From the NCBI GenBank assembly GCA_028716245.1, contig JAQUQW010000003.1, positions 20,638 through 84,637 of the forward strand: a stretch of 64,000 bases of DNA, in the 5' to 3' direction. The notes under the pieces were generated by a model that made no database searches, was not told the origin of the DNA, and saw only the letters and a list, made by a program, of their open reading frames with translations. A program made the position numbers and the translations under genes. Source of the stretch: Candidatus Omnitrophota bacterium. Its GTDB lineage: Bacteria > Omnitrophota > Gorgyraeia > Gygaellales > Profunditerraquicolaceae. This document shows positions 1 to 15,027 of the stretch, piece after piece; position 1 is the first letter of the stretch, and each line of letters starts with the position of its first letter.

Positions 1-774
1 CAGGCTAAATGCTTGTTTTGGCGGAATCCGTGTTATGGTGTTTTTAGGACAATGGTGGATAAAGAATATTCTTTTAAGCGGCGCTGATTCAATCCTAGAA
101 GCAAGATAATCGCTAAATTCACCGTGCCAGGGAGAGCCGTAGATGAAAAATTTACCGTTGAACTTACGTATAATTATACGATCATCATTTAAGACCGTCG
201 CCCTTGAGTGTTTATGCCAGAGTCTGGCGGTGGTGCTTTTGCCTGCCCCGGATTTACCGGCGAAAAGCAAACCCCGGCCACCGACATCTTTTATTCCCAC
301 AGAATGAGTAAAGATACCCTGATTCCTCTGGGCAAAATAATTTATCAAAAGCACCTGAAGAAAATCATAGATTATGTCCGAGGTATTCCAAACCTTGCCT
401 TTATTCTTCTTAGGCAATAGATAAACTTTTACTCTATCAAAAGTTTTATTTACCAGCATAATTTGTTTTTTGTCCTCAAGCGGGCATTTATAGATATAGA
501 TATCGCCTCTTTTAAGCAGGCGCCAGTTCTCGTTTTTATCCTGAAAATGATAGGTAATAAATACCGGTTTTGTATTCAAGACATCGGGAAGTTTATCCGC
601 TATTTCGATATCAATTACAATATCCGGCCTTTGGCTTCCTTTATAGAAGAAATTATCAAACCGTTCAGCAGCTTCCAGCTTCTGTCCTTCCGCGCTAAAC
701 TGCTCTAAAGGGAAACAACTTTGCATCAAGATAACCGTATCCGCGATTTTAAGATTAACCTTGTAGTCTATCAT
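1..774 (-). CDS. HPr kinase/phosphorylase C-domain-like serine kinase (partial; C-terminus lies beyond window start)
   Basis: Own translation of minus strand from ATG 774..772 gives an uninterrupted frame to position 1. It is absent from the ORF track only because it runs off the edge. P-loop ...IKDVGGRGLLFAGKSGAGKSTTARLWH... encoded ~290..215 is typical of the HprK C-terminal domain. Start overlaps stop of upstream rSAM gene (TAATG). Confidence 0.6.
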   Translation of the reverse strand, partial: MIDYKVNLKIADTVILMQSCFPLEQFSAEGQKLEAAERFDNFFYKGSQRPDIVIDIEIADKLPDVLNTKPVFITYHFQDKNENWRLLKRGDIYIYKCPLEDKKQIMLVNKTFDRVKVYLLPKKNKGKVWNTSDIIYDFLQVLLINYFAQRNQGIFTHSVGIKDVGGRGLLFAGKSGAGKSTTARLWHKHSRATVLNDDRIIIRKFNGKFFIYGSPWHGEFSDYLASRIESAPLKRIFFIHHCPKNTITRIPPKQAFSL

Positions 775-1892
775 TATGACACGATGCTCCTTTCAGGATA
801 AATTTTCATTCTTTTGCCGGCCTTTGCTTTTACCATCATCTTTTTTGCTGTTTCTTCTGCCAATTGGCAATAATATAACACTGGCGCTTCTTCGTCACCC
901 GTCTCTAAATACGCCCTTGCCGGGCAATGATAGCAGATTGGCCGCCAAGAGCAATCTTTGCATTTAGAGTCGGTTTTAAAGCGCTCATTTAATATTTGTG
1001 TAGGCCAACGATAAAAACCCTCTTTGAATGGTGTAGTTTTTAAATCTATGCTAAATTGATCTGAAAATATACAAAACTTAAGCCGTCCATAAGGATTAAT
1101 AAAAAATTGCTGCATCCAGGAATTGCAATGATAAAGCAGGCTTCTCTCCTGTTTTAAATCGGGAAAATCGCTATGGAGCCCCTTTTGATATTCTCCCCAG
1201 ATATCCGGGTCTTGTTTTCTTAACTCCACCAGCTCTTCAAAAGAAAGCCGGTGATTACACGGCGCCTTATCGCCATTTACCCGAGGATAAATCATCGGGT
1301 CATATTTAAAACGATACTTATTGTCCGCAGGCTTGCCTAAAAGCTCCTCTGTCCATCTTTTTATCTTGGCAATCTCATTTTTGTTCTGTTTTAGGCAATT
1401 GGATTTTAATATAAGTTTAGTATTGTTCTTTGATAATAACTTAATATTTTTAATTACCCGAAAAAAAGAACCGCTAACTTGGGTAATTGATTCATAGGAT
1501 TCTTGGGTTATGCCATTTAGAGTTATCTCAATGGAAAAAGGAGGATATTTCGCCAAATAATTGACAATTTCTTTGCTCAGGCTGTAACCATTGGTAAAAA
1601 GCGTGATAATAAAACCCTTACTTTTAGCATAGGAATAGATTTCTAAAAAATCACCCCTGACTAAAGGATCTCCGCCGGTAAAAGTAAGCCAAAGACAACC
1701 TTCTTGCTGAAGCGTATCAAGAATTTTCTTCCACTCCTCAGCAGTCAATTCTCTGTCTTCCGAACTTTTGCAATAGCAATGAACGCAGTTTAGATTACAA
1801 CGATAGGTGAATTCAAGCTGGCCGCTCCAGGGATAATGCTCTTTTTTACTATTTAATTTACGAATAAAACGACCGAGGCTATTTTTTTCCAT
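774..1892 (-). CDS. radical SAM / SPASM-domain peptide-modifying enzyme
   Basis: CNLNCVHCYC (CxxxCxxC) near N-terminus; C-terminal Cys-rich SPASM-like region (CNSW...CIF...CKDCSWRPICYHCPARAY...YYC). Confidence 0.8.
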   Translation of the reverse strand: MEKNSLGRFIRKLNSKKEHYPWSGQLEFTYRCNLNCVHCYCKSSEDRELTAEEWKKILDTLQQEGCLWLTFTGGDPLVRGDFLEIYSYAKSKGFIITLFTNGYSLSKEIVNYLAKYPPFSIEITLNGITQESYESITQVSGSFFRVIKNIKLLSKNNTKLILKSNCLKQNKNEIAKIKRWTEELLGKPADNKYRFKYDPMIYPRVNGDKAPCNHRLSFEELVELRKQDPDIWGEYQKGLHSDFPDLKQERSLLYHCNSWMQQFFINPYGRLKFCIFSDQFSIDLKTTPFKEGFYRWPTQILNERFKTDSKCKDCSWRPICYHCPARAYLETGDEEAPVLYYCQLAEETAKKMMVKAKAGKRMKIYPERSIVS

Positions 1893-1974
1893 TCTTTCAA
1901 ACGCTAATCCACACGAATTTCAAAGGTAATTAAGTACTATGCCCCCGGAATTCAAATAAACAACTAGGTAAATC

Positions 1975-2021
1975 ACCAAAAAAATAAAAAGGGTTCAGGA
2001 GGAAGCGCTGCTCAATAACCC
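1975..2021 (-). terminator. putative attenuator/terminator downstream of precursor gene
   Basis: On minus strand: GGGUU-(22 nt loop)-AACCC followed by UUUUUAUUUUUUU, ~55 nt after precursor stop. Weak stem, strong U-tract. Confidence 0.3.
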
Positions 2022-2074
2022 AGTCGCAGCCTCGTTCATCATTAATTAGATATTGTGTTCCCAATTAAAATGGC

Positions 2075-2299
2075 TTATGAAGTGCCTGTCGTGGTTCTAG
2101 TAAAATTAATTAATGGACCTGATCCTGAAGGGAATATGCAGCCCCAAACCGCCCCTTTATTGTGCGAATACCCTTTCAAGGACGGTCCAGCGATTGCGGT
2201 TTGGTACCCCCAACCGTAACAATTACACGACAACACCGCCTGCTCAGGGTTGAGTTTTACCCGCGTAATCACCGGCTTAAATTTAGGTTTTTTGGGCAT
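2075..2299 (-). CDS. RiPP precursor peptide candidate (74 aa)
   Basis: AAGGAG 7 nt upstream of ATG at 2299 (the ORF-track N-terminal extension MLILERRSK contains the SD). Sequence MPKKPKFKPVITRVKLNPEQAVLSCNCYGWGYQTAIAGPSLKGYSHNKGAVWGCIFPSGSGPLINFTRTTTGTS: Lys-rich leader-like N-terminus, Gly/aromatic/Thr-rich C-terminal part with 3 Cys, no Asp, C-terminal Ser. Sits immediately after the PqqD gene. Confidence 0.55.
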   Translation of the reverse strand: MPKKPKFKPVITRVKLNPEQAVLSCNCYGWGYQTAIAGPSLKGYSHNKGAVWGCIFPSGSGPLINFTRTTTGTS

Positions 2300-2327
2300 C
2301 TTACTTCTCCTTTCCAGGATTAGCAAT

Positions 2328-2609
2328 TTATTTTACCGCTTTGATCTCTTTTAAGTCTTTTAATAATTTCTGCATCTCCTTGTCTACTTCTTCGGGCGTG
2401 GTATCAAACTCCTTCAGGAGCTTACTTTTAAGCTCGGTCAGCGTCCTTTTGCCGTCGAGCAATTCCCAAACCCTTGAAGCAACTTTATTTAAAGTATAGA
2501 TACAGTTTATCTCATCTGAGGTCTTATAAATCGGCAGAAGTATGGTCTCATCTTCAATCACCCGAGTTACCATATCGGAATTCTTGCGTAAAACAGTCTT
2601 TTCTTGCAT
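2328..2609 (-). CDS. PqqD-family RiPP recognition element protein
   Basis: 93 aa; ...LNKVASRVWELLDGKRTLTELKSKLLKEFDTTPEEVDKEMQKLL... matches the PqqD consensus. GGAGG 9 nt upstream of ATG 2609. Confidence 0.75.
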   Translation of the reverse strand: MQEKTVLRKNSDMVTRVIEDETILLPIYKTSDEINCIYTLNKVASRVWELLDGKRTLTELKSKLLKEFDTTPEEVDKEMQKLLKDLKEIKAVK

Positions 2610-4020
2610 TGGTTTTACCTCCTCTTGAAAGAATCTTCTCTATCGCCCACATCTTTTTTTCAGTTTTATCCCACTTTTTTATCGACCTATTGTTTTTTAG
2701 TTTTCTTTCTTTCAGAAATGCCGCCTTAAACGCATTATATCTACCGGTAACCAAATCAATTATAGCATGTTTTTCTTTTAACAAAAAGGCAATCTTTAAT
2801 AGGCGCAAAGTCGTTTCCAACGCGTCAAAACCTAAGATCAACGAATTTTTATAAAAAACAGCCGCCTTGGGGAATTTTCTTTGTTTTTCATATATCCGGC
2901 CTAAAAGATAATGGCTTTGCGCGTCTAAACGTTCAAATGATTGATACCTTAACAATAATTTCTTGGCTTTATGAATATTGCCGAGTTTAAATTCCGCGGC
3001 TGCCATTCCCAAGAGGTATTGCTCTTCTAGCTTATTAAACAATCCTTGATTGCCCTGCTTTAAAGCCAAGGAAAAATATGTTTTTGCTTTTTTAAAATTA
3101 TTTCTTTGCAGGAAAATTTGGCCCAAACCCAGAAAGCAAGCGGGGTTTTTGGGATCAACTTTCAATATTTTTGAAAATTCTTTTCTCGCTAAAGAAAACT
3201 TCCCCAGAGATAAGTAAAGCGGCCCATAATTATTATCTGAAACCCTGTAAGCGGGATCACAGGCGATTGCTTTTTCGTAGTATTCTTTTCTTCCCGTGGA
3301 CCTAAAAAGATTAAAATTCTCGGCTGCCGCTAAAGCGGCCCGGAAACGGTTTCTAAATTCTCCGGGAGAAAAATTATAGGCGAGCTCATCACCTAAATGC
3401 TTATACTCCATTGGTGTATAACCGCCGTTTACCGAATAGGCGATAGTGATTATTTGCGGCTGTCGTATCTTTCCCTTAAGCGTTTCTACCAAATGAGCTG
3501 GCGTAATCCAAGGTTTTCTTTTGCCTATATCGACTGTATTGTTTGCATTCACAAGGCTATCTATAACTAAAAAATCAGTATCGATATCAAGCAAAACCTT
3601 CTGCTTAAAAATAGGCAGATTTTTTAAGGTGCAGACAATAAATCTCCTGCCAGAAAGCCTGTTTGATAATTTTCTTTGCATGCACAGAGCGGCTTGCGGT
3701 ATACTGCCAGCTCCCGGCACCACCCAGTAAAAATCCCTGACAATGCCCTCCTGCATTGCCGGATAAATATAATTGCCGATATTTGCCTGCTTATCCAAAT
3801 CATTTTCATACTGTTGATAAGCTAAACTATGCTCTAAATCGCTTTTTAATTCCTTCAAAGTTTTTGCATCCCGAATTATATTATCTATCGGTTTTGCCTG
3901 ATAAAACCCAAAATCAATATGGGCGTCAATATGCACCAAATCAAGGTTTTTAAAACCCTTCTGCCGCCAAATGGTTAGCGCTGCATCATGGTCTTCGATA
4001 AGGAACACGCCTTTACTCAT
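2554..4020 (-). CDS. arginase/deacetylase-fold (UPF0489-like) metallohydrolase domain fused to C-terminal TPR repeats
   Basis: N-terminal motifs in arginase-family order: EDHDAALTI, VHIDAHIDF, LLDIDTDFLVID. C-terminal half has repeated TPR-like helices (AIACDPAY...YLSLGKF...LGQIFLQRNNFKKAKTYF...). Confidence 0.45.
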   Translation of the reverse strand: MSKGVFLIEDHDAALTIWRQKGFKNLDLVHIDAHIDFGFYQAKPIDNIIRDAKTLKELKSDLEHSLAYQQYENDLDKQANIGNYIYPAMQEGIVRDFYWVVPGAGSIPQAALCMQRKLSNRLSGRRFIVCTLKNLPIFKQKVLLDIDTDFLVIDSLVNANNTVDIGKRKPWITPAHLVETLKGKIRQPQIITIAYSVNGGYTPMEYKHLGDELAYNFSPGEFRNRFRAALAAAENFNLFRSTGRKEYYEKAIACDPAYRVSDNNYGPLYLSLGKFSLARKEFSKILKVDPKNPACFLGLGQIFLQRNNFKKAKTYFSLALKQGNQGLFNKLEEQYLLGMAAAEFKLGNIHKAKKLLLRYQSFERLDAQSHYLLGRIYEKQRKFPKAAVFYKNSLILGFDALETTLRLLKIAFLLKEKHAIIDLVTGRYNAFKAAFLKERKLKNNRSIKKWDKTEKKMWAIEKILSRGGKTNARKDCFTQEFRYGNSGD

Positions 4021-4415
4021 CTTTTGCGAAGTTTCATATAAACAGGTTTTAAAGACTTAATAATCAAAGGGACAATGACCACCATAAAGCTATTGATCAA
4101 CCTATTTCTCCAAATTGTAAGATTGATCATCCTATTATTTTTTATAATACCAACCACTTTACCGATAAACATTTCTCGGGTTATCGGTTCCGGCGCAGAC
4201 AGAGAATTGTCTCCCCGCGTATAGAGAAAATCCTTATTTTTCCTTACTAGCCGATGACAAATCAATTGGTTATTTACCCGGTATAAAATAATATCCCCGG
4301 CTCTTAAATCATCTGCCGGGAATTTTTTAATCACCAGTTTTTCTTTCGGCCGGATAAACGGCCACATACTAAACCCGGAGGTTTCAAAAAATAATAGATC
4401 TTCGGAATTATTCAC
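4017..4415 (-). CDS. S26-family signal peptidase I-like serine protease (SipW/archaeal type)
   Basis: GFSMWPFI (Ser), GDIILY, HRLV (His), TRGDNS box; C-terminal hydrophobic helix. Confidence 0.6.
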   Translation of the reverse strand: MNNSEDLLFFETSGFSMWPFIRPKEKLVIKKFPADDLRAGDIILYRVNNQLICHRLVRKNKDFLYTRGDNSLSAPEPITREMFIGKVVGIIKNNRMINLTIWRNRLINSFMVVIVPLIIKSLKPVYMKLRKR

Positions 4416-5325
4416 GGATCCCTTTCGGCGCGGGAAAATTCAACGCGTCGCAAACTTTACAAATCTCTGAACAGCTTCGGGATCCTTTTGCTAGCGATCG
4501 CCTGGCGCTTTTAAAAAAATCTGAAAACCAGATGTCCTTAAGAGTTGAATCTTTGGCATCCCCCATAACTACCTTCCACAATCCATCCGCGCAGCATAAA
4601 GGCACAGTCCCATCATAACCAATAACTATTTCGGTTAACGGCCTCAGGCATTGGATCTTTAGCGGATTTTTTAAAAAAACTCCCGCGTTTGGGCTTTGGC
4701 CGGCACGATTGCCGAAGTAATCGGTTTTAGCCCTATAATTAATTATAACTTCGCCACCCAAAACAGCTGAATTATTTAGCAGTTTCCTTATGGAGGGATT
4801 CAATTTGTGCTGATCATTATAATTATTTATGATAATCCTATTTAAACCGGATTCGAATAGTTCATTCACTAAATTCGCGTTAATCAAAATGCCGTTAGTA
4901 TACAGATAAAAAAAATTGTTTTTCAATAGGCCCCTGGCAATTCTTATCCGAGAGGATAAACGCGCATCCAAAAGCGGTTCGTTATTGCAATGAAAGGCAA
5001 TGCTTCCAATAAAAGATAAATTTGCCAATTCATTAAGTATCTTTAGGTATAAACTCTCGAGCATAAGGTTTTTGGGATTTTTTGCTCCAGCTTTTGCCGA
5101 CGCCGGGCAAAAAGCGCAATCATTATTACAATAAGAAACGGTCTCAATAAATACTTTATCAAACAACTTATTTTTATCCGCAGGCACCCGGAAGTTATTT
5201 TTAATAACAATTTCTTTTAATTTGAGATAATTCTTTTGCATAAAATTGCTGCGGCGCAGGAATCTCCTAACCTTTGATCTTATGCCGTAAACATATTTAT
5301 TCTTATTCCTTATTTTAATTGTCAT
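4408..5325 (-). CDS. radical SAM / SPASM-domain enzyme (second)
   Basis: CNNDCAFCPAS rSAM motif; C-terminal CCADGLW...CSEICKVCD auxiliary-cluster motif. Confidence 0.8.
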   Translation of the reverse strand: MTIKIRNKNKYVYGIRSKVRRFLRRSNFMQKNYLKLKEIVIKNNFRVPADKNKLFDKVFIETVSYCNNDCAFCPASAKAGAKNPKNLMLESLYLKILNELANLSFIGSIAFHCNNEPLLDARLSSRIRIARGLLKNNFFYLYTNGILINANLVNELFESGLNRIIINNYNDQHKLNPSIRKLLNNSAVLGGEVIINYRAKTDYFGNRAGQSPNAGVFLKNPLKIQCLRPLTEIVIGYDGTVPLCCADGLWKVVMGDAKDSTLKDIWFSDFFKSARRSLAKGSRSCSEICKVCDALNFPAPKGIRE

Positions 5326-5355
5326 ATTAATCTTCTATTTAAGCTGTATCTCTTA

Positions 5356-5364
5356 TGTTATAAT
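5356..5364 (+). promoter_or_regulatory. extended -10 promoter element TGT-TATAAT, 6 nt before ATG 5371 (possible leaderless transcript)
   Basis: Sequence atgTTATAATttgaatATG; no SD between -10 and start. Confidence 0.3.
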
Positions 5365-6513
5365 TTGAATATGAACGAAAGGAAAATACCCAGTGAACAT
5401 AAATTAATCTTGCTTTGTACAAGATTAAAGATAAACGAACCTAACCGGAATGAAATCTTGGGCCTTCTAAATGGGCCGCTTAACTGGAATAGAATAAGAG
5501 AATTCTCCGTCCGGCAAGAAATCCTGCCTTTTCTGTATTATAACTTAAACAGGCTGAATCTTCAAGATTCCATCCCTCAGGAGATGTTCGCAATAATGAA
5601 AAACTACCATTATTCTAACCTTGTTAGAAACTCAATGTTAGAAAAAGAGGCTGCGCTTATTCTGAAATCGGCCAATTCCGCGGGCATAACCATTATGCCT
5701 TTCAAAGGCTTTAGCTTAATACAAACAATATACCAGAGCAATCCTGAGCTAAGGATAATGGTTGATGTCGATATACTTGTAAAAGAAACTGAATTTCCGA
5801 AAATAAAAAATATTCTTACCCAAACAGGCTATATAGAAAATACGGATACTATTGGCAATAAAATCGCTTTCGAAAACGTCTTCTCAAAAAAGCTTTCCGC
5901 GAGTTTTTCGTCAATTATAGAGATCCACACCGAGCTTTCTCCTGCCCGCCCTTACCCGCTCAAACTCCCGCAACTTTGGGAAAGAACCCGGGAAATAAAC
6001 ATTAATAGCCAGAAAATATCGCTTTTATCCGCGGAAGACACATTTTTATCCTTAGCCCTGCATTTACGCAGGCATCTGCGGAGGCTAACTTTAAAATTTA
6101 TAGTCGATATTTCTGAATTGTTAAGCGCGAGCGGCGAAAACCTTGATTGGAAATATATAAAGAAATCGGCCCAAGATAGCCATATGATAACAACCGTTTA
6201 TCTTTCTCTTTATATCACGAAAGAACTGCTGGATATGCCTGTTGCCGGCAAAATCTTAAATGAATTCCGGCCAAATATCATTAAAAACGCCCTGATAAGT
6301 TTATCGATAAACAAACATAATTTTTTTACTTTTAAAAAATGGCAAGCCACGTTTTTGCGGTTTTTACTTTTTGACCGCCTTTTAGACTTCTTCCTTTATC
6401 TCTGGCGGGTATCTTTTGTCGAAAGATTTATCGGCAGACGGGCCCGCAAAAAGACTAAAACAAACGCTATACCGAGAATACCGATAAGAAATATTGTGGA
6501 AACCAGGAAGTAA
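5365..6513 (+). CDS. PF14907-like putative nucleotidyltransferase (RiPP-cluster-associated)
   Basis: ORF track starts at TTG 5365; first ATG at 5371. ...FKGFSLIQTIYQSNPELRIMVDVDILVKETEFPKIKNILTQTGY... resembles the G-x-A...R-x-DxDxLV core of the uncharacterised nucleotidyltransferase family found next to PqqD/HprK genes in lasso-type clusters. Confidence 0.55.
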   Translation: MNMNERKIPSEHKLILLCTRLKINEPNRNEILGLLNGPLNWNRIREFSVRQEILPFLYYNLNRLNLQDSIPQEMFAIMKNYHYSNLVRNSMLEKEAALILKSANSAGITIMPFKGFSLIQTIYQSNPELRIMVDVDILVKETEFPKIKNILTQTGYIENTDTIGNKIAFENVFSKKLSASFSSIIEIHTELSPARPYPLKLPQLWERTREININSQKISLLSAEDTFLSLALHLRRHLRRLTLKFIVDISELLSASGENLDWKYIKKSAQDSHMITTVYLSLYITKELLDMPVAGKILNEFRPNIIKNALISLSINKHNFFTFKKWQATFLRFLLFDRLLDFFLYLWRVSFVERFIGRRARKKTKTNAIPRIPIRNIVETRK

Positions 6514-7439
6514 AAAAGCGCTTTGGCTATAATAATATCTGATTTTAAGCTTTTACTAAATCTATCCACGTAATGAACAAACCTATCTTCTCCGCCAAAT
6601 AGATAACTCGTCCCTATTCTGATGCCATTGGGAAGCTTATCAATGTAGCTTTGGAATACAGAAAAAAATCCATATCTGGTATTATACTTATCGATAAAAT
6701 CGTTTCCTGTGCGCAAAAATACGCATTTTAAAAGCTTCGAGTAAGAAACCGGCATTGCATTGTGTTCCTCTGCCCCACTTCCTATTCTCTGAATCAAAAT
6801 ATTTCCGGTTCGATCATCCAGCAGCCTTTCTCTTAATTCTAAAAAGGAAAGCGGGTTGCCCCGCTCGGTAGCGTAAAAACCAAACGTTGTATCTACAAAT
6901 ACCCATTTTTTTAAGCTTTTAATATAAACTTCGTTCACCGAGTGAGCCAGCGGCTTAAACTTCTCGCTTTCTAAAGCCCATAATCTTGATTTTAAGCCTA
7001 AACCGGATAAATACGCGGAGAATAAAATCGAGCGGTGAAAACAATTCGCGCCCCGGGCTCCCTCTCTTATCTGCCTGAGCATGCCATCGGGAGAATCCCA
7101 TTTTAAAACTCGGCCCGTACGGTTATTATTCGAAAATATATTCATTACATATTTTGCGGCTTCAAGCATAGCTTCAAAGTCATCGTTTTTGTTCCTGATT
7201 AAAGGCCGGATCTCATTTTTAAAAATATCGAGCCCGGGCTTATCCGGTTCGAGATGAAAATATCCCGGGGCCTTATCCGGCTGCCAGTAAAAATCATCCG
7301 GGTTAACGGACTCAATAATATCCCAGACAGCCAAATGTGAAAACGCGCGGCTTTTGAATAACGAATAACCAATAACCCCGTCGATTAAAATAATTATAAA
7401 AACAGCTAGGTAAATATTTCTTTTAATTATTCTTTTCAT
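6396..7439 (-). CDS. membrane-anchored transglutaminase-like cysteine protease
   Basis: N-terminal TM helix; GANCFHRSILFSAYLSGLGLKSR (Cys), HSVNEVYI (His), WVFVDTT (Asp) as in the transglutaminase-core / lasso B2 protease superfamily. Confidence 0.55.
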   Translation of the reverse strand: MKRIIKRNIYLAVFIIILIDGVIGYSLFKSRAFSHLAVWDIIESVNPDDFYWQPDKAPGYFHLEPDKPGLDIFKNEIRPLIRNKNDDFEAMLEAAKYVMNIFSNNNRTGRVLKWDSPDGMLRQIREGARGANCFHRSILFSAYLSGLGLKSRLWALESEKFKPLAHSVNEVYIKSLKKWVFVDTTFGFYATERGNPLSFLELRERLLDDRTGNILIQRIGSGAEEHNAMPVSYSKLLKCVFLRTGNDFIDKYNTRYGFFSVFQSYIDKLPNGIRIGTSYLFGGEDRFVHYVDRFSKSLKSDIIIAKALFYFLVSTIFLIGILGIAFVLVFLRARLPINLSTKDTRQR

Positions 7440-8169
7440 ATCCGCTTAATTTACACCTAAGAATATGGTGAATAAAAATCAGATTCCCCAATAAGTATCT
7501 CTTCCACAACCTTTTCGGCTGCTGCCACAATCTGTGCAGCCATTCAAGCCCAAATTTAATCATCCAGTTCGGCGCTCTTTTTCGTTGGCCGGACAACCAA
7601 TCAAACACGGCGCCTACAGCCCAATATAAATTAACATTTAACGCACCTATATTATTAGCTATCCATTTTTCTTGTTTCGGAACCCCCATCCCAACCATTA
7701 ATATATTTGGCTTTAAACTGTTAATTTCTTGAATGATTTTCTGCTCTTCGGATTTAGCAAAAAAACCCTCCCGGCTGCCTACAATTCTTAATCCTTTGGC
7801 CTTCAATGCTTCTGCTGTCTTTTTAACGGTTCCCTCCCGGCCTCCCAATAAATAAATGGTTATCTTTCGATCTTTCAGTTCGGAAACTAACCTATCAAAA
7901 AAATCCAATATGTTTACCCTTTCCGGCAAAGGGTTACCTAAAAATCTCGCGGCCCAGACCACGCCCTGGCCTCCGGTGTAAACCAAGTCTGCTTTTTGCA
8001 GAATTTTTTTATATTCATTATCGATTAAGGCGGTATTTACACAGTGCGCGTTAAGATAGGTTATAAATTTAGCCTTATCCGTAAGGGCGTATTCCAGAAT
8101 TTTCCCTATGATATCATCGGCAGCCAGCGCCCCAACCTCTATGCCTAAAAAATTAATAGTTTTATGCAT
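7423..8169 (-). CDS. WecB/TagA/CpsF-family glycosyltransferase
   Basis: 248 aa; conserved ...VYTGGQGVVWAARFLG...ERV.G.DF...GVPKQEKW...DWLSGQRKRAPNWMIKFGLEWLHRLWQQPKRLWKRY matches the family throughout. Confidence 0.75.
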   Translation of the reverse strand: MHKTINFLGIEVGALAADDIIGKILEYALTDKAKFITYLNAHCVNTALIDNEYKKILQKADLVYTGGQGVVWAARFLGNPLPERVNILDFFDRLVSELKDRKITIYLLGGREGTVKKTAEALKAKGLRIVGSREGFFAKSEEQKIIQEINSLKPNILMVGMGVPKQEKWIANNIGALNVNLYWAVGAVFDWLSGQRKRAPNWMIKFGLEWLHRLWQQPKRLWKRYLLGNLIFIHHILRCKLSGYEKNN

Positions 8170-8186
8170 CTAAAAATAGAAATAAA

Positions 8187-9920
8187 TTACTGATTATGAA
8201 AAAAATCCCGGTAAGCCTGGCTTTCGGATAAAAGCTGGTCATGGACGCCTGCTTCTATTTTTCCATCCCCTCTTAAAAAATATATCCTATCCGCGTCTTT
8301 TATCGAAAACAGCCGGTGAGAAATAACTAGGGTACTTAAACCCTGCCTCTTTTGCCTCAAAGCCTTGAATAGCCGCTCTTCGGTAAAAGAATCCACGGAA
8401 GAAGTGGCTTCATCAAGAATAAGCAAATGGGGATTTTTTAATATCGCCCGGGCGATAGAAATCCGCTGTTTAAGCCCTTGTGAGAGGCGGCAGGCATCCT
8501 CGCCGATCAAAGTATGATAACCCTGAGGCAATTGACTGATAAAATCGTGAACACAGGCAATTTTGGCCGCCTCGATTATCAATTCTTCTTTAATATTTTT
8601 AAAACCATACCTTATATTTTCTTTTATGGAAACATCAAATAAAAACGGCTGTTGAGTAGCGACAGCTATTCTTTCTCTTAAGGATTTTAATTCTATTTCT
8701 CTCAAGTCCAAACCATCCAAGCATATCCGGCCCGCGTCAGGATCGTATAACCGCAGGATCAGATTAATCAGCGTGGTTTTGCCGCATCCCGAAGGTCCGA
8801 CTATCCCGGTCCATGAACAAGCAGGGATCTTAAAATTAAGCTCATTGATAACGGGTTTTCCATTATACCCAAAACGCACATCTTTAAACAGAATTTCTCC
8901 TTTTATGGCGGGTAATGTTTTTGCTTCTGGCGCGCTTTTTATCAAAGGCCGGGTATTCATAATCTCAAAGAAGTTATTCAGGGAGACCGCTTCCTGCGTA
9001 AGAAAAGCGAAATTGTTGCTCAGAGACCCCAGTAACCCTCCTAACTGAGTAAGATACAGCATAACCGCGGTATAGCTGCCCAGCGTCATTCTTCCTTTAA
9101 TTATCAACCACCCGCCATAAAGAGTGATTGCCCCGTAGATCGCCTTGGTTAAAAAAGACGAACTCAAAGAATTGATTGTGGTCCAGCGAAAACTTTTTAT
9201 CCTCCAGCGGATATTCTCAATCCAAGATCTTAAATAACTCCGCCTTTGATATGACTCCAAGCCGAATGCCTTAATAATCAAAACCCTGGAAAAAGCTTCA
9301 TAAACCTTTTTGGAAACTAAAGCGCTGTATTTCCAGAGCTCTTGATAAATGGGCCTGAGTTTTTTCTGCAGGTAGACACTATGCAGGATAAAGAGAGGGC
9401 TTAGAATAAGCAAAAACACAGTCATCCGGGCATTAATCCAAAACGAAATCCCCAGAATAATGAATAACTTGAAAATATCCACCAAGAGGCGCGGGAACTG
9501 TTCGAGGATAAAGTTGGCAACGTTCTCTACATCGGAAAGCCTGTAAACATTTTCGCCTACGGATTGGGATTGAAAAAAACTTAAATCCAGGGAATAGAAT
9601 TTTCTGATAAACCGGCCGGCTAAATCGAGCTTTAACTTTATGGCTATTTTGTTTTTTATGATATCTTCGGCGGCCTTAACCGATATAGTGAATATGAATA
9701 TCGCCGCTCCCACAATAGACAGGTTCAGGAATTTGTCAAAGTTTCTGGCGATAAACGCCTTGTCGATAAACAACTTGGAAAGATACGGCGTGATCAGCGC
9801 GAGGCTGGAAGAAAAAAGACCCAATAAAAATAATACGAGGATCCGTTTCCGGTAAAAAAATATAAATTTTGCTAGGAGTTGATTATTGCGGAAAAGCTTA
9901 AATCTATTTAAAAATTCCAT
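8187..9920 (-). CDS. ABC exporter, fused permease + ATPase (type I exporter)
   Basis: Six predicted TM helices then Walker A GPSGCGKTT, signature LSQGLKQRISIARA, Walker B LILDEATSSVD. ORF track start is GTG 9935; first ATG at 9920. Confidence 0.85.
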   Translation of the reverse strand: MEFLNRFKLFRNNQLLAKFIFFYRKRILVLFLLGLFSSSLALITPYLSKLFIDKAFIARNFDKFLNLSIVGAAIFIFTISVKAAEDIIKNKIAIKLKLDLAGRFIRKFYSLDLSFFQSQSVGENVYRLSDVENVANFILEQFPRLLVDIFKLFIILGISFWINARMTVFLLILSPLFILHSVYLQKKLRPIYQELWKYSALVSKKVYEAFSRVLIIKAFGLESYQRRSYLRSWIENIRWRIKSFRWTTINSLSSSFLTKAIYGAITLYGGWLIIKGRMTLGSYTAVMLYLTQLGGLLGSLSNNFAFLTQEAVSLNNFFEIMNTRPLIKSAPEAKTLPAIKGEILFKDVRFGYNGKPVINELNFKIPACSWTGIVGPSGCGKTTLINLILRLYDPDAGRICLDGLDLREIELKSLRERIAVATQQPFLFDVSIKENIRYGFKNIKEELIIEAAKIACVHDFISQLPQGYHTLIGEDACRLSQGLKQRISIARAILKNPHLLILDEATSSVDSFTEERLFKALRQKRQGLSTLVISHRLFSIKDADRIYFLRGDGKIEAGVHDQLLSESQAYRDFFHNQ

Positions 9921-9926
9921 ATTTTT

Positions 9927-9932
9927 ATTATA
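9927..9932 (-). promoter_or_regulatory. TATAAT hexamer 6 nt upstream of ABC-exporter ATG (inside the atpC/ABC junction)
   Basis: Minus strand: ...TAA GATGTG TATAAT AAAAAT ATG GAA...; same TATAAT-N6-ATG geometry as at 5359. Confidence 0.25.
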
Positions 9933-9938
9933 CACATC

Positions 9939-10190
9939 TTACTTAAGAAGAATCGTGGCTTTGTTCTGCAGGACCTCAAGATACCCGGTTTGTTTTGTTT
10001 CTATAGCCTTGGTTAGGCCGGTGCTATCCTTAAAAGTAATTACCCCGGGTTTGAGCTTGGCAATCACCGGGGCATGAAACGCTAAAATGCCAAGATAACC
10101 TGATTCCGAAGGAGCCACCAGAGAAACCGCCTCTCCTTCATATATTGTCTTATCGCTGGAATAAATACCGATCTGAAAAATATTAGCCAT
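9939..10190 (-). CDS. atpC: ATP synthase F1 epsilon subunit (short form, N-terminal beta-sandwich only)
   Basis: 83 aa, position after atpD; ...HAPVIAKLKPGVITFKD... typical epsilon N-domain; no C-terminal helical hairpin. Confidence 0.7.
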   Translation of the reverse strand: MANIFQIGIYSSDKTIYEGEAVSLVAPSESGYLGILAFHAPVIAKLKPGVITFKDSTGLTKAIETKQTGYLEVLQNKATILLK

Positions 10191-10193
10191 ATC

Positions 10194-12453
<2,260 letters not shown>

Positions 12454-12459
12454 AATTTT

Positions 12460-13983
12460 TTAAGGTTTAATCAAAAATTCTTTTTTAAAATCAGCAATTA
12501 AATTATCCAACTTGTTTTTCAGGTTTAAATCCAATTCATTCTTTGAAGTAATCTCCGCTTGAATTTCCGGATATTTCTGCTCGATAAATTTATAAAGCTG
12601 GCTCTCAAACCTCTTAACCGCGACAAGAGGCAGGTCATCCAAATACCCGTTGGTGCCGGCGTAAATAATAATTATCTGTTTTGCTGTTGCCAAAGGCTCA
12701 TACTGCACTTGCTTTAATACCTCCACCATCCTTTCGCCGCGGGTTAGCTGAGCGCGCGTAGTTTTATCCAGATCCGTGCCGAATTGCGTAAAGGTTACCA
12801 GTTCCCGGTACTGCGCAAGATCCAACCGGAGTTTTGAAGCCACCTGGCGCATCGCCTTGCTCTGTGCCTTGCCTCCCACGCGGGAAACCGATAATCCCAC
12901 ATTTACCGCGGGCCGCACACCGGCATAAAATAGATCGCTTTCCAGATAGATCTGTCCGTCAGTAATCGAAATTACGTTGGTGGGGATATAACTTGAAATA
13001 TCTCCGGCCTGAGTTTCAATAATTGGAATCGCCGTTATTGAGCCTGCCCCCAGTTGATCGTTTAATTTTGCGGCTCGCTCAAGCAGCCGCGAATGTAAAT
13101 AGAAGATATCGCCCGGATAAGCTTCTCTTCCCGGAGGCCTCCTTAAAAGTAAAGATAACTGCCGGTAAGCCTGGGCGTGTTTGGATAAGTCATCGTAAAT
13201 TACCAGGACGTGCTTTCCGGCATACATAAATTCTTCGGCCATAGCGGTGGCCGCGTAAGGAGCAAGATACTGCAGGCTTGCCGAAGCCCGGCTGGAAGCG
13301 CTGACAATCGTAGTGTAATCCATTGCCCCGTGTTTTTTAAGTACTTCACTTACCGCCACCACACTGGATAACTTTTGGCCGATCGCGCAATAAATACAAT
13401 AAACATCCTTGCCTTTTTGATTAATAATCGTATCGATGGCAATGGCGGTTTTTCCGGTTTGGCGGTCTCCGATAATCAACTCGCGCTGGCCACGGCCGAT
13501 AGGGGTCATCGTATCAATAGCCTTTATCCCGGTCTGCAATGGTTCTTTTACCGGCTGCCTCTGGACCACATTAGGGGCAGAGGATTCCAGCGGCCGCGCC
13601 GATTGCGTATTGACCTGGCCTTTACCGTCGATTGGCCGGCCTAAGGCATTGACTACCCTGCCAACCAAAGCTTCACCTACAGGAACCTGCACAATCTTAC
13701 CTGTACGTTTGACAATATCCCCTTCGCGGATATTTTTATCCGGGTTGTCCGTGCCAAAAATTACTACCCCGACGCTATCCTCCTCCAAGTTTAAAACCAT
13801 CCCCATGATATTATCGGAAAACTGGACCAATTCTCCCATCATTACATCATCCAAACCGTAAATACGCGCGATGGTATCCCCCACCTGGATAACTGTGCCG
13901 ATAGACTCGGTACGCAGGCGCGTCTTATATTTTTCTAACTCCTTCTTAATTATTGAAGTAACCTCTTCCGGTTTTAAAACCAT
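12460..13983 (-). CDS. atpA: ATP synthase F1 alpha subunit
   Basis: 507 aa; [10 protein letters not shown]-loop; AtpA-like throughout. Confidence 0.95.
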
Positions 13984-13984
13984 A

Positions 13985-14533
13985 TCAATCCATCCTTACT
14001 GTAGTAAGCCTCTCTCTTAGGCCCTCGAGGCGTTTTTTTACCGAACCGTCAATAATAGTATTACCGATAATTATCTGGACTCCTCCTAACAAACTGCCGT
14101 CTAAATTTATATAAAATCTTAGGTCCTGTTTAAATTTTTTCTTTAAAGCCGCCTCTATTCTTCTAATCAGATCCAGATCCAACGGGAAAGCAGTCTTAAG
14201 CAGCACATCAACCTGCCCTTGATGGCTGTATTTTGCACGTAAGTACTCGGCAACATCCAAGAAGATATTGAAACGTTTTTTTTCAAGAAGGAGCTTTAAT
14301 AAATTACGCATCTCATCAGCAACACCGTCCTTGATTACTCCATCGATAATCAGGCACTTCTCAAGGTAAGAGATCTCCGGATTATCCAGCAACTGGCCAA
14401 ACCCCGGATTATCGCGGATAATATTCTTTACAATTACCAGATCCTCCAGGGCTTTATCTGTTCCGCAATTGGCCTTAGCAAAACTTAAGAAAGCTTCGGC
14501 ATACCTGCTGACCACTGCTTTATCTTTGATCAT
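13985..14533 (-). CDS. atpH: ATP synthase delta (OSCP) subunit
   Basis: 182 aa, operon position, OSCP-like. Confidence 0.8.
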
Positions 14534-15027
14534 TCCACTTTCTCAATTTCTTTAATAAAATTTTCCACTATTTTGCGGTCACCGTCTTCAGTGAGCCTCT
14601 CCTGGATTACGCTTTTAGCAGCGCCCAGGGCAATATCCACAATCTTATCCTTGAGCTGTTCCTGAACCTTAGAGACCTCGTATTTTACCTGATTGCGCGC
14701 ATCGGTAATAATGTCCTGCGCCTCCTCATAAGCCTTCTTGCGCATTTGGGAATTTATCTCCTTACCTTCTTCAATGGCCTCCTTAATCTTTGCCTGCGCT
14801 TGATCGGCAATTAAAGAAATCTTAGCCTCATAATCAGACTTAAGCTTGGCAATCTCAAGCTTAGAATTCTCTATCTCACCAAGCTCAGAGCTAATTTTTT
14901 CCCTGCGCTGGTCCAGGAGACCAAGGATTTTCTTCCAGGCAAAATGCTTGAGCAGAAATAACAGCAGAAAAAAACTTAAAATTTGGGCAAAAATCTCATT
15001 TGCGCTGAGCATCTTCAATAATTCCAC
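14530..15027 (-). CDS. atpF: ATP synthase Fo b subunit
   Basis: 165 aa, N-terminal TM then long charged coiled coil. Confidence 0.75.
   Translation of the reverse strand: MELLKMLSANEIFAQILSFFLLLFLLKHFAWKKILGLLDQRREKISSELGEIENSKLEIAKLKSDYEAKISLIADQAQAKIKEAIEEGKEINSQMRKKAYEEAQDIITDARNQVKYEVSKVQEQLKDKIVDIALGAAKSVIQERLTEDGDRKIVENFIKEIEKVE

Follow-up and report, generated by a model that had tools for sequence, protein, structure and literature searches.

Short Omnitrophota peptides with an invariant leader and hypervariable, Ser-ended cores are probable RiPP precursors encoded with radical SAM/SPASM enzymes, an HprK-like kinase and an optional peptide arginase

The 64,000-nt stretch of a Candidatus Omnitrophota genome analysed here (contig JAQUQW010000003.1, positions 20,638 to 84,637 of the forward strand; the window) contains on its minus strand, at window positions 2075-2299, a gene of 74 codons followed by a TAA stop codon at 2075-2077. 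This open reading frame (ORF) probably encodes the precursor of a ribosomally made peptide with post-translational modifications (RiPP) that belongs to a large Omnitrophota family and would be cross-linked, phosphorylated and exported by the enzymes encoded around it. An initial annotation had proposed a RiPP precursor because of the cationic leader, the Cys-bearing core, the neighbouring PqqD and radical S-adenosylmethionine (rSAM)/SPASM genes and a C-terminal Ser matched to an HprK-like kinase, and this reading is strongly supported by conservation and synteny. The general hallmarks of precursors that depend on a RiPP recognition element (RRE) are all found, namely a conserved leader, a variable core, a position beside a discrete RRE and maturases, and synteny. 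The cluster, which is from an uncultured phylum, appears to join several rSAM/SPASM maturases and, optionally, a peptide arginase to a kinase module of the type found with the linear polyphosphorylated peptides (LPPs; Popov et al., Nat Commun 2026, PMC13381572) or with SynChlorMet (Scm), and its chemistry is predicted accordingly from the encoded proteins. In the literature on SynChlorMet, on RiPPs with HprK, SPASM or PqqD components and on Omnitrophota or Omnitrophica RiPP precursors, we found no description of this precursor family.

The translation of the gene, MPKKPKFKPVITRVKLNPEQAVLSCNCYGWGYQTAIAGPSLKGYSHNKGAVWGCIFPSGSGPLINFTRTTTGTS, comprises 74 residues and contains 7 Lys, 2 Arg, 1 Glu, no Asp and 3 Cys (C25, C27 and C54), as had been counted initially, and its last residue is indeed Ser74. 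The mechanical ORF starts at TTG 2326; the earlier choice of the second Met (ATG 2299) is correct, because the Shine-Dalgarno sequence GGAGAAG (2304-2310, minus strand, read from the sequence) precedes this ATG and all homologues begin with MP[KR]KPKF. Residues 1-31 (2207-2299) form an invariant N-terminal block with the leader elements F7-x-P9-x-I11 and LNPEQAVL followed by C25-x-C27-Y28-x-x-G31. Residues 32-74 (2078-2206) constitute a hypervariable core with C54 (2138-2140), R68 (2096-2098), which is the sole Arg of the core, and Ser74 (2078-2080). All three Cys that had been regarded as substrates for cross-linking are thus present, but two of them, C25 and C27, sit in the invariant block and not in the variable core. 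A 100% identical protein (P0001) exists in public data, and neither Pfam nor NCBIfam holds a family model matching the peptide. A tblastn search of the window with the peptide detected a single copy and no additional ones. A better precursor candidate was not found within the window, where the cluster genes are tightly packed; the sole other small ORF (1930-2064) is without precursor features, although its homologues were not checked.

With a word-indexed search, we retrieved more than 190 small homologues of 53-102 amino acids, all annotated as 'hypothetical' and originating from Candidatus Omnitrophota wherever a source is named. A profile search of 1.84 billion representatives clustered at 50% identity yielded 846 family representatives at E<=1e-3 and 667 at E<=1e-10, with lengths of 63-115 amino acids among the 150 matches listed. 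The precursor family is large, without annotation and mostly from Candidatus Omnitrophota. In the alignment, residues 1-31 are near-invariant (MPxKPKFKPVITRVKLNPEQAVLSCxC[YFW]xxG), with K4, F7, P9, T12, R13, L16, P18, E19, Q20, A21, L23, C25 and C27 being invariant, and beyond the position of Gly31 no residue exceeds approximately 25% at any site. Core statistics were obtained from 289 unique cores. CxC is present in 282 of them, with an aromatic residue at position +3 in 83% and Gly at position +6 in 67%. At least three Cys occur in 287 cores; the third Cys follows 17-28 residues past CxC, and in half of the peptides a fourth is found after another 11-13 residues. The cores end in Ser in 269 cases, in Thr in 18 and in another amino acid in only 2, compared with a Ser background of 10%, and across the cores the last six residues are small and uncharged. 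Basic residues near the C-terminus, which might have served as a kinase determinant, were not enriched in the tails.

Comparison with the closest relative of the precursor (L070, 75% identical) gave a ratio of nonsynonymous to synonymous substitution rates (dN/dS) of 0.18 for residues 1-31 and of 0.61 for the core, while the adjacent PqqD gene had a ratio of 0.08 in the same comparison. Together with an in-frame 2-codon indel between the two precursor copies, this pattern indicates that the gene is translated, that the leader is constrained and that the core is fast-evolving.

To assess the genomic context, 68 loci were assembled, 64 from a scan of one genome per species and 4 from contig look-ups, and the ORFs of each locus were scored with the window proteins; many of the 68 loci are truncated. 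The recurring gene order is (NTP_transf_5), (S24/S26), (UPF0489-TPR), PqqD, precursor in 1-7 copies, rSAM1, rSAM2, kinase, rSAM3, ABC exporter and NTP_transf_5. The precursor was detected in 66 loci, rSAM genes in 56, PqqD in 51, the kinase in 43, the ABC exporter in 36, S24 in 28, and NTP_transf_5 and the arginase-type UPF0489-TPR gene in 25 each. The orthologue of the window gene at 774-1892 (rSAM1) comes immediately after the precursor in most loci and accompanies it more often than any other gene (56 of 68), and PqqD usually lies directly upstream of the precursor. The search for homologous short ORFs near PqqD and rSAM genes, which had been suggested as a check, found the precursor in synteny in 64 genome loci and confirmed the leader/core pattern, so that a lack of conservation in syntenic clusters can clearly be dismissed. 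In the window, the run of minus-strand genes consists of rSAM/SPASM, S24/S26, UPF0489+TPR, PqqD, the peptide, rSAM/SPASM and the P-loop HprK-like gene. The kinase had been described as adjacent to the Ser-ended precursor; it is near, but an rSAM gene lies between the two.

In public assemblies of the window organism and its relative, the sequence breaks off at the precursor gene or shortly past it. A 4425-nt contig (L069) is identical to window positions ~1900-6300, and the precursor copy of L066 (3507-3653) decays after codon 17. The repeated invariant leader, with several loci per genome, probably fragments short-read assemblies, and because of these breaks at the leader the family is likely under-counted. 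Two further sets of family members differ in their arrangement. Locus L067 contains, at 7927-12116, seven tandem precursors of a divergent subfamily with the leader QKWQKPELTRVKLNPEQAVLSCC, WxxPxL and CC replacing CxC; a nitroreductase-family gene lies inside the array. As no cassette enzyme is encoded within 10 kb, these precursors are probably matured in trans. The metagenome-assembled genome 'Modern_marine_planktonic.mb.3' has at least 6 separate contigs with family members (L015, L033, L035, L049, L058 and L059), and on several of its contigs the PqqD ORF and the peptide frame are seemingly fused or overlapping, with stop-to-stop PqqD ORFs of 750-840 nt that contain the leader.

The optional UPF0489-TPR gene (2554-4020, minus strand) encodes a protein of 488 amino acids in which a peptide arginase domain (PF12640/UPF0489) is fused to TPR repeats. 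Its PF12640 score of 34.0 exceeds the cut-off of 27, whereas the NCBIfam FlmR/OhkR score of 44.9 is below the cut-off of 350. In the peptide arginase OspR, the motifs EEH(N/H)EAF, DxHxD and LDIDLDYF bind a binuclear Mn site (PMC10028609). The counterparts in the window protein, E9-D-H11-D, D32-A-H34-I-D36 and D145-I-D147-T-D149-F, show full or at least 90% conservation across 23 orthologues, of which 22 match the NCBIfam peptide arginase model. A PDB sequence search with the protein returned TPR proteins only, and the motif comparison was used instead. Compared with its closest orthologue (L066), the arginase-TPR protein has a C-terminal tail that is ~15 residues longer, and the 3' end of its gene shares 56 nt with the PqqD ORF (2554-2609).

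The presence of this gene is reflected in the peptide cores. Lys and Arg are enriched 3-8 residues past the third Cys, with 17-25% per position compared with a background of 6.9%. In peptides from loci with the arginase, Arg is the first basic residue past the third Cys in 18 cases and Lys in 7, whereas in peptides from assessable loci without it Arg was found once and Lys 14 times (Fisher p = 6e-5). Counted per locus, the ratios are 16 Arg to 5 Lys with and 1 Arg to 11 Lys without arginase, and the overall Arg content of the cores is 8.5% with and 2.4% without. We rejected an artefact of base or amino acid composition, since GC content (0.441 vs 0.433) and the R/(K+R) ratio of the enzymes (0.43 vs 0.45) hardly differ between the two groups; in addition, the core of a locus with 26% GC (L042) is all Arg and a locus with 61% GC (L044) uses Lys. 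An artefact of a single clade was rejected as well, since both states are scattered across the rSAM1 tree, with at least 5 sister contrasts. Most simply, a primary amine would be needed after the third Cys, either encoded as Lys or provided as ornithine made from Arg. The correlation, which is new here, suggests that ornithine substitutes for lysine. R68 of the window peptide is conserved in L070.

From these observations and the enzymes encoded in the cassette, we infer a maturation pathway in which the chemical steps, their order and the cleavage site are all predictions. The discrete PqqD-family RRE (2328-2609, minus strand; Pfam PqqD 1.8e-13, NCBIfam lasso_PqqD_Bac 5e-7), with the lasso RRE TbiB1 and 9x8z_B (deposited as 'PqqD family protein') as best PDB matches, would bind the invariant leader and present the peptide to the other enzymes. 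F7-x-P9-x-I11 of the leader may represent a form, shortened by one residue, of the [Y/W]xxPx[LVI] motif found in lasso and LPP leaders. The rSAM/SPASM enzymes would act on C25, C27 and C54, with thioether-type cross-links as the most likely product. rSAM1 (774-1892, minus strand; Radical_SAM 1.1e-22) has the CxxxCxxC motif and, with Cx13Gx4C and Cx2Cx5Cx3C at the C-terminus, a complete SPASM Cys pattern, and its best PDB match is SkfB (4.5e-15). It is the one rSAM enzyme encoded beside the precursor in the window; normally two more are encoded after the kinase gene. All three, rSAM1-3, match only the generic rSAM/SPASM regions of AhbD, NirJ, MftC, PqqE, AlbA, SkfB, StsB, PapB and ScmE/F. The arginase-TPR protein would convert a core Arg, here R68, to ornithine and thereby yield the primary amine for which relatives without the arginase encode Lys.

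Phosphorylation of the side chain of the C-terminal Ser74 would be catalyzed by the ScmC/HprK-like P-loop kinase, of which the first 258 residues are encoded at 1-774 (minus strand), where the window edge cuts off the 3' part of the gene. The window protein has weak HprK_rel_B, HPr-Ser-kinase and ScmC matches, and the P-loop and an LNDDR motif are invariant across its orthologues. Among the matches listed, the orthologues P0209 and 116 of 119 other homologues, all 'hypothetical', belong to the Pfam family PF27840 (ScmC), and the truncated window copy gave no PF27840 match in the local Pfam scan. We propose that the DD pair of LNDDR may correspond to the D158/D159 metal site of PsmK. PadeK and PsmK phosphorylate the C-terminal Ser of lasso precursors, and the uncharacterised nucleotidyltransferase PsmN adds a hexose to the phosphate (PMC6993621). 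Ser or Thr ends 287 of the 289 cores, and a kinase gene belongs to the cassette; by analogy with paeninodin-type precursors, the terminal hydroxyl would be the phosphorylation site. The NTP_transf_5 nucleotidyltransferase (5365-6513, plus strand; PF14907 2.7e-46), which is of the same family as LppN, might extend the phosphate with a sugar, possibly helped by the glycosyltransferases embedded in many loci.

The archaeal/ER-type signal peptidase I (SpI)-like protease of family S26 (4017-4415, minus strand, 132 amino acids) was recognized by Peptidase_S24 (1.6e-7) and TIGR02228 (2.7e-11), the latter with 43.6 bits and thus just under the cut-off of 51.85. It retains SGFS16MWP, C53-H54-R55 and GD69N as well as a C-terminal membrane anchor, and its SM.P, HR and GDN residues resemble the Ser-His-Asp triad of LppS, which is an RRE-dependent leader peptidase (PMC13381572). 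With this precedent, the S26-like protein is a candidate leader peptidase that would remove the leader with assistance of the RRE. In LPPs, the motif Pro is located 13 residues before the scissile bond (PMC13381572). Cleavage of the Omnitrophota peptides would probably occur within or just after LNPEQAVL, ~12-15 residues past FxP and, by analogy with LPPs, around A21-L23. Finally, the MsbA-like ABC transporter without peptidase domain (8187-9935, minus strand; ABC_membrane and ABC_tran) would export the product. Judged from their sequences, the catalytic motifs of the cassette enzymes are intact.

Several observations weigh against this pathway. No modification has been observed for any family member. 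The window shows neither rSAM2 nor rSAM3 and its edge cuts the kinase gene, and S24, NTP_transf_5 and arginase genes were detected in only 25-28 of the 68 loci, many of those loci being truncated contigs. The scores of the rSAM proteins to characterised maturases (AlbA, SkfB, StsB, PapB, PqqE, MftC and ScmE/F) are far below the family cut-offs, and the leader motif is FxP, not YxxP. The window peptide itself is atypical for the Lys/Arg pattern: past C54, no basic residue occurs before R68 at +14, although +3 to +8 is usual. The residue that LppK phosphorylates is core Ser3 and not the C-terminus, and the enzyme rejects Thr (PMC13381572), whereas 6% of the family peptides end in Thr.

The initial annotation had drawn an analogy to paeninodin-type lasso clusters, which fits in part. 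Like paeninodin and pseudomycoidin clusters (PMC6993621), the cassette combines an HprK-like kinase and a nucleotidyltransferase with a Ser-ended precursor and a discrete PqqD RRE. However, neither a lasso cyclase (asparagine-synthetase-like) nor a B2 cysteine protease was found among the window cluster genes with Pfam and NCBIfam, and the sole protein with a transglutaminase core is a membrane protein that is shared with one other locus only. In addition, the cores of 43-80 residues are hypervariable and rSAM enzymes are present. We also weighed a lasso peptide in which T12 would be the penultimate residue of the leader and E19 would serve as ring acceptor, and rejected it because of the missing cyclase and a ring of only 6 residues. 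Paeninodin is not the sole best functional analogue; another is the LPP family of Bacillota (lppA-K-B-S-D-N), which is free of a lasso cyclase and in whose clusters TIGR02228 SpI, PqqD, HprK-like kinase, NTP_transf_5 and MsbA-like exporter domains co-occur (PMC13381572).

All five of these core genes are present in the window cluster, and the NTP_transf_5 Pfam model that matched here is the one given in LPP Supplementary Data 2 (PMC13381572). Both systems have precursors with a conserved N-terminus and a highly variable C-terminus, present in LPP clusters in 1-3 copies, and both are found in the context of capsule, glycosyltransferase or polysaccharide genes. This raises the question whether the Omnitrophota product may likewise be a linear, (poly)phosphorylated and possibly glycosylated peptide, with the rSAM enzymes acting on a sugar, a lipid or another substrate and not on Cys. 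The frequent location of the clusters among glycosyltransferase and polysaccharide-export genes would agree with such a product, as would the failure of all cassette rSAM enzymes to reach a peptide-maturase family cut-off. We nevertheless regard it as unlikely, since rSAM1 directly follows the precursor in most loci as its top partner and the peptide, hypervariable elsewhere, retains three invariant Cys, whereas no Radical_SAM domain is listed for LPP loci in the accessible part of the supplement. The leaders differ as well, with FxPxITRVKLNPEQAVL in Omnitrophota compared with YxxPxVLxHQxIxFETxxS in LPPs and no FET motif here. LPP cleavage occurs after T-1, whereas the residue before CxC is variable here; the conserved hydroxyl is provided by the C-terminal Ser/Thr here and by core Ser3 in LPPs; and the optional peptide arginase is a further difference. 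LPPs were reported as restricted to Bacillota (PMC13381572). The window system, by comparison of its components, is not a member of the LPP family, though LPP is its closest described system.

A second alternative to a cross-linked, phosphorylated and exported peptide is a cofactor-type pathway as for PQQ or mycofactocin, in which the peptide would serve as a scaffold, a small molecule would be built from a few invariant residues, such as the C-terminal Ser or CxC-Tyr, and then excised, and the variable stretch would be a mere spacer. The mycofactocin cassette unites PqqD, rSAM/SPASM, peptidase and glycosyltransferases, and the combination of these genes here resembles it; MftC and PqqE are among the better rSAM matches, and the invariant residues are few and placed at both ends. 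Cofactor precursors are normally single-copy and have invariant cores, from which the 1-7 paralogous precursors with different cores per locus, and genomes with many loci, differ markedly. A dedicated ABC exporter, the conservation of the third Cys and of the Lys/Arg position inside the variable region, and a core dN/dS of 0.61 instead of ~1, indicating some constraint, further make a scaffold function very improbable. Least probable by far, to the point of being nearly negligible, is a small protein secreted via the Sec pathway, in which the S26-family peptidase encoded two genes away would cleave a signal peptide at A-I-A|G (residues 35-38), the site that the initial annotation had considered for the cleavage step. 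A35-I36-A37-G38 is indeed present and fits the AxA rule, but its use as cleavage site is not supported, because these residues belong to the hypervariable part and are not conserved in any relative. The N-terminus is highly charged with no hydrophobic h-region in residues 1-34, and the homologous LppS is an RRE-dependent leader peptidase that does not act on Sec substrates. Any cleavage site conserved throughout the family would have to fall in or beside the invariant residues 1-31.

Other described systems share individual features with the probable RiPP cassette. The Scm cluster has an HprK-like protein, PqqD and several rSAM/SPASM proteins, and the orthologues of the window kinase are members of the Pfam family named after ScmC. 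However, all four NCBIfam equivalog cut-offs were failed (ScmC 20.9 vs 125; ScmD 33.2 vs 100; ScmE 74.9-81.9 vs 400; ScmF 56.7-77.3 vs 400), leaving only the broad Pfam ScmC family, and the SpI-like protease, NTP_transf_5 and arginase are additions here. To our knowledge, a Scm precursor has never been identified, whereas the precursor is obvious here. Sactipeptide and ranthipeptide systems (AlbA, SkfB, StsB, PapB and CteB) also encode an RRE-dependent rSAM/SPASM enzyme beside a Cys-containing precursor; here, in contrast, no membership was found at the level of family hidden Markov models, three distinct rSAM enzymes are available for three or four Cys, and the chemistry predicted by analogy for the C-terminal Ser and the SpI-type protease are additional. 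The arginase resembles OspR, FlmR and OhkR (PMC10028609, PMC12703449) in the three metal-site motifs and in a PF12640 score above the cut-off, and differs from them in the TPR fusion, a score below the FlmR/OhkR cut-off and its context in an rSAM/kinase cassette; its activity here is predicted.

The cassette is embedded in a variable set of further genes. Recurrent accessories inside the cassettes, for example those of L016, L031 and L040, are GT1 glycosyltransferases (20 loci), B12-binding rSAM proteins of the C-methyltransferase type (14) and peptidase U32 (9), and polysaccharide export genes (Poly_export/SLBB, Wzz) often flank the cassettes. In the window, an extra rSAM/SPASM protein (4408-5325, minus strand; SPASM 1e-11, Radical_SAM 3.3e-7) is an accessory common only to L064, L052 and L069. 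A membrane protein with a transglutaminase core (6396-7439, minus strand; Pfam Transglut_core 2.9e-5) and a WecG/TagA glycosyltransferase (7423-8169, minus strand; Pfam) are probably accessory to this cluster variant. The block of WecG, transglutaminase-core protein, extra rSAM/SPASM protein (305 amino acids) and S24 at window positions 4017-8169 is shared in the same order only with the Candidatus Gygaella obscura locus (L064, 4670-7768), with NTP_transf_5 inserted on the opposite strand in the window copy, and looks like a distinct cassette sub-variant with an additional rSAM enzyme. The operon of an F-type ATP synthase (epsilon, beta, gamma, alpha, delta, b; 9939-15027) directly adjoins the ABC exporter gene and marks the right-hand border of the cluster. 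At the other end, the closest sequenced relative of the window cluster (L012) has a second full-length precursor (4907-5173) directly after the kinase gene, with rSAM2 and rSAM3 ~6 kb beyond it; as the window ends inside the kinase gene, a second precursor may therefore lie just beyond window position 1. Between the precursor stop codon and rSAM1, a hairpin, GAGGCUGC...GCAGCGCUUCCUC, followed by the U-tract UUUUUAUUUUUUU, is located at 1978-2033 (minus strand), and it could act as a leaky terminator that raises the ratio of precursor to enzyme transcripts. As a terminator or attenuator it was rejected, since its stability is no better than that of shuffled sequence (z = -0.22) and it was not called by the terminator scan, which found no terminator in 1893-2074, 3' of the peptide gene.

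The analysis provides hundreds of 'hypothetical' small ORFs, as well as ScmC-type kinases, of an uncultured phylum with a substrate assignment and a testable pathway. It also widens the range of the newly described LPP module beyond Bacillota, in combination with multiple radical SAM enzymes. The coupling of the Lys/Arg switch to a peptide arginase constitutes a concrete genomic prediction, namely a functional need for ornithine at one defined position. A natural combinatorial library is suggested by cores that are hypervariable while the leader before them is invariant, and the enzymes may be useful as substrate-tolerant tools for peptide engineering. As a possible but doubtful extension, the precursors might form a phylum-wide, prochlorosin-like library, in which one leader would direct an LPP-type module and three rSAM/SPASM enzymes to yield cross-linked products with a phosphorylated or phosphoglycosylated C-terminus; these would depend on a primary amine just past the third Cys, either Lys or ornithine made by a co-inherited arginase. 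If this were true, the family would represent a new RiPP class with a new role for ornithine, and it may provide the long-missing substrate type of ScmC-family cassettes.

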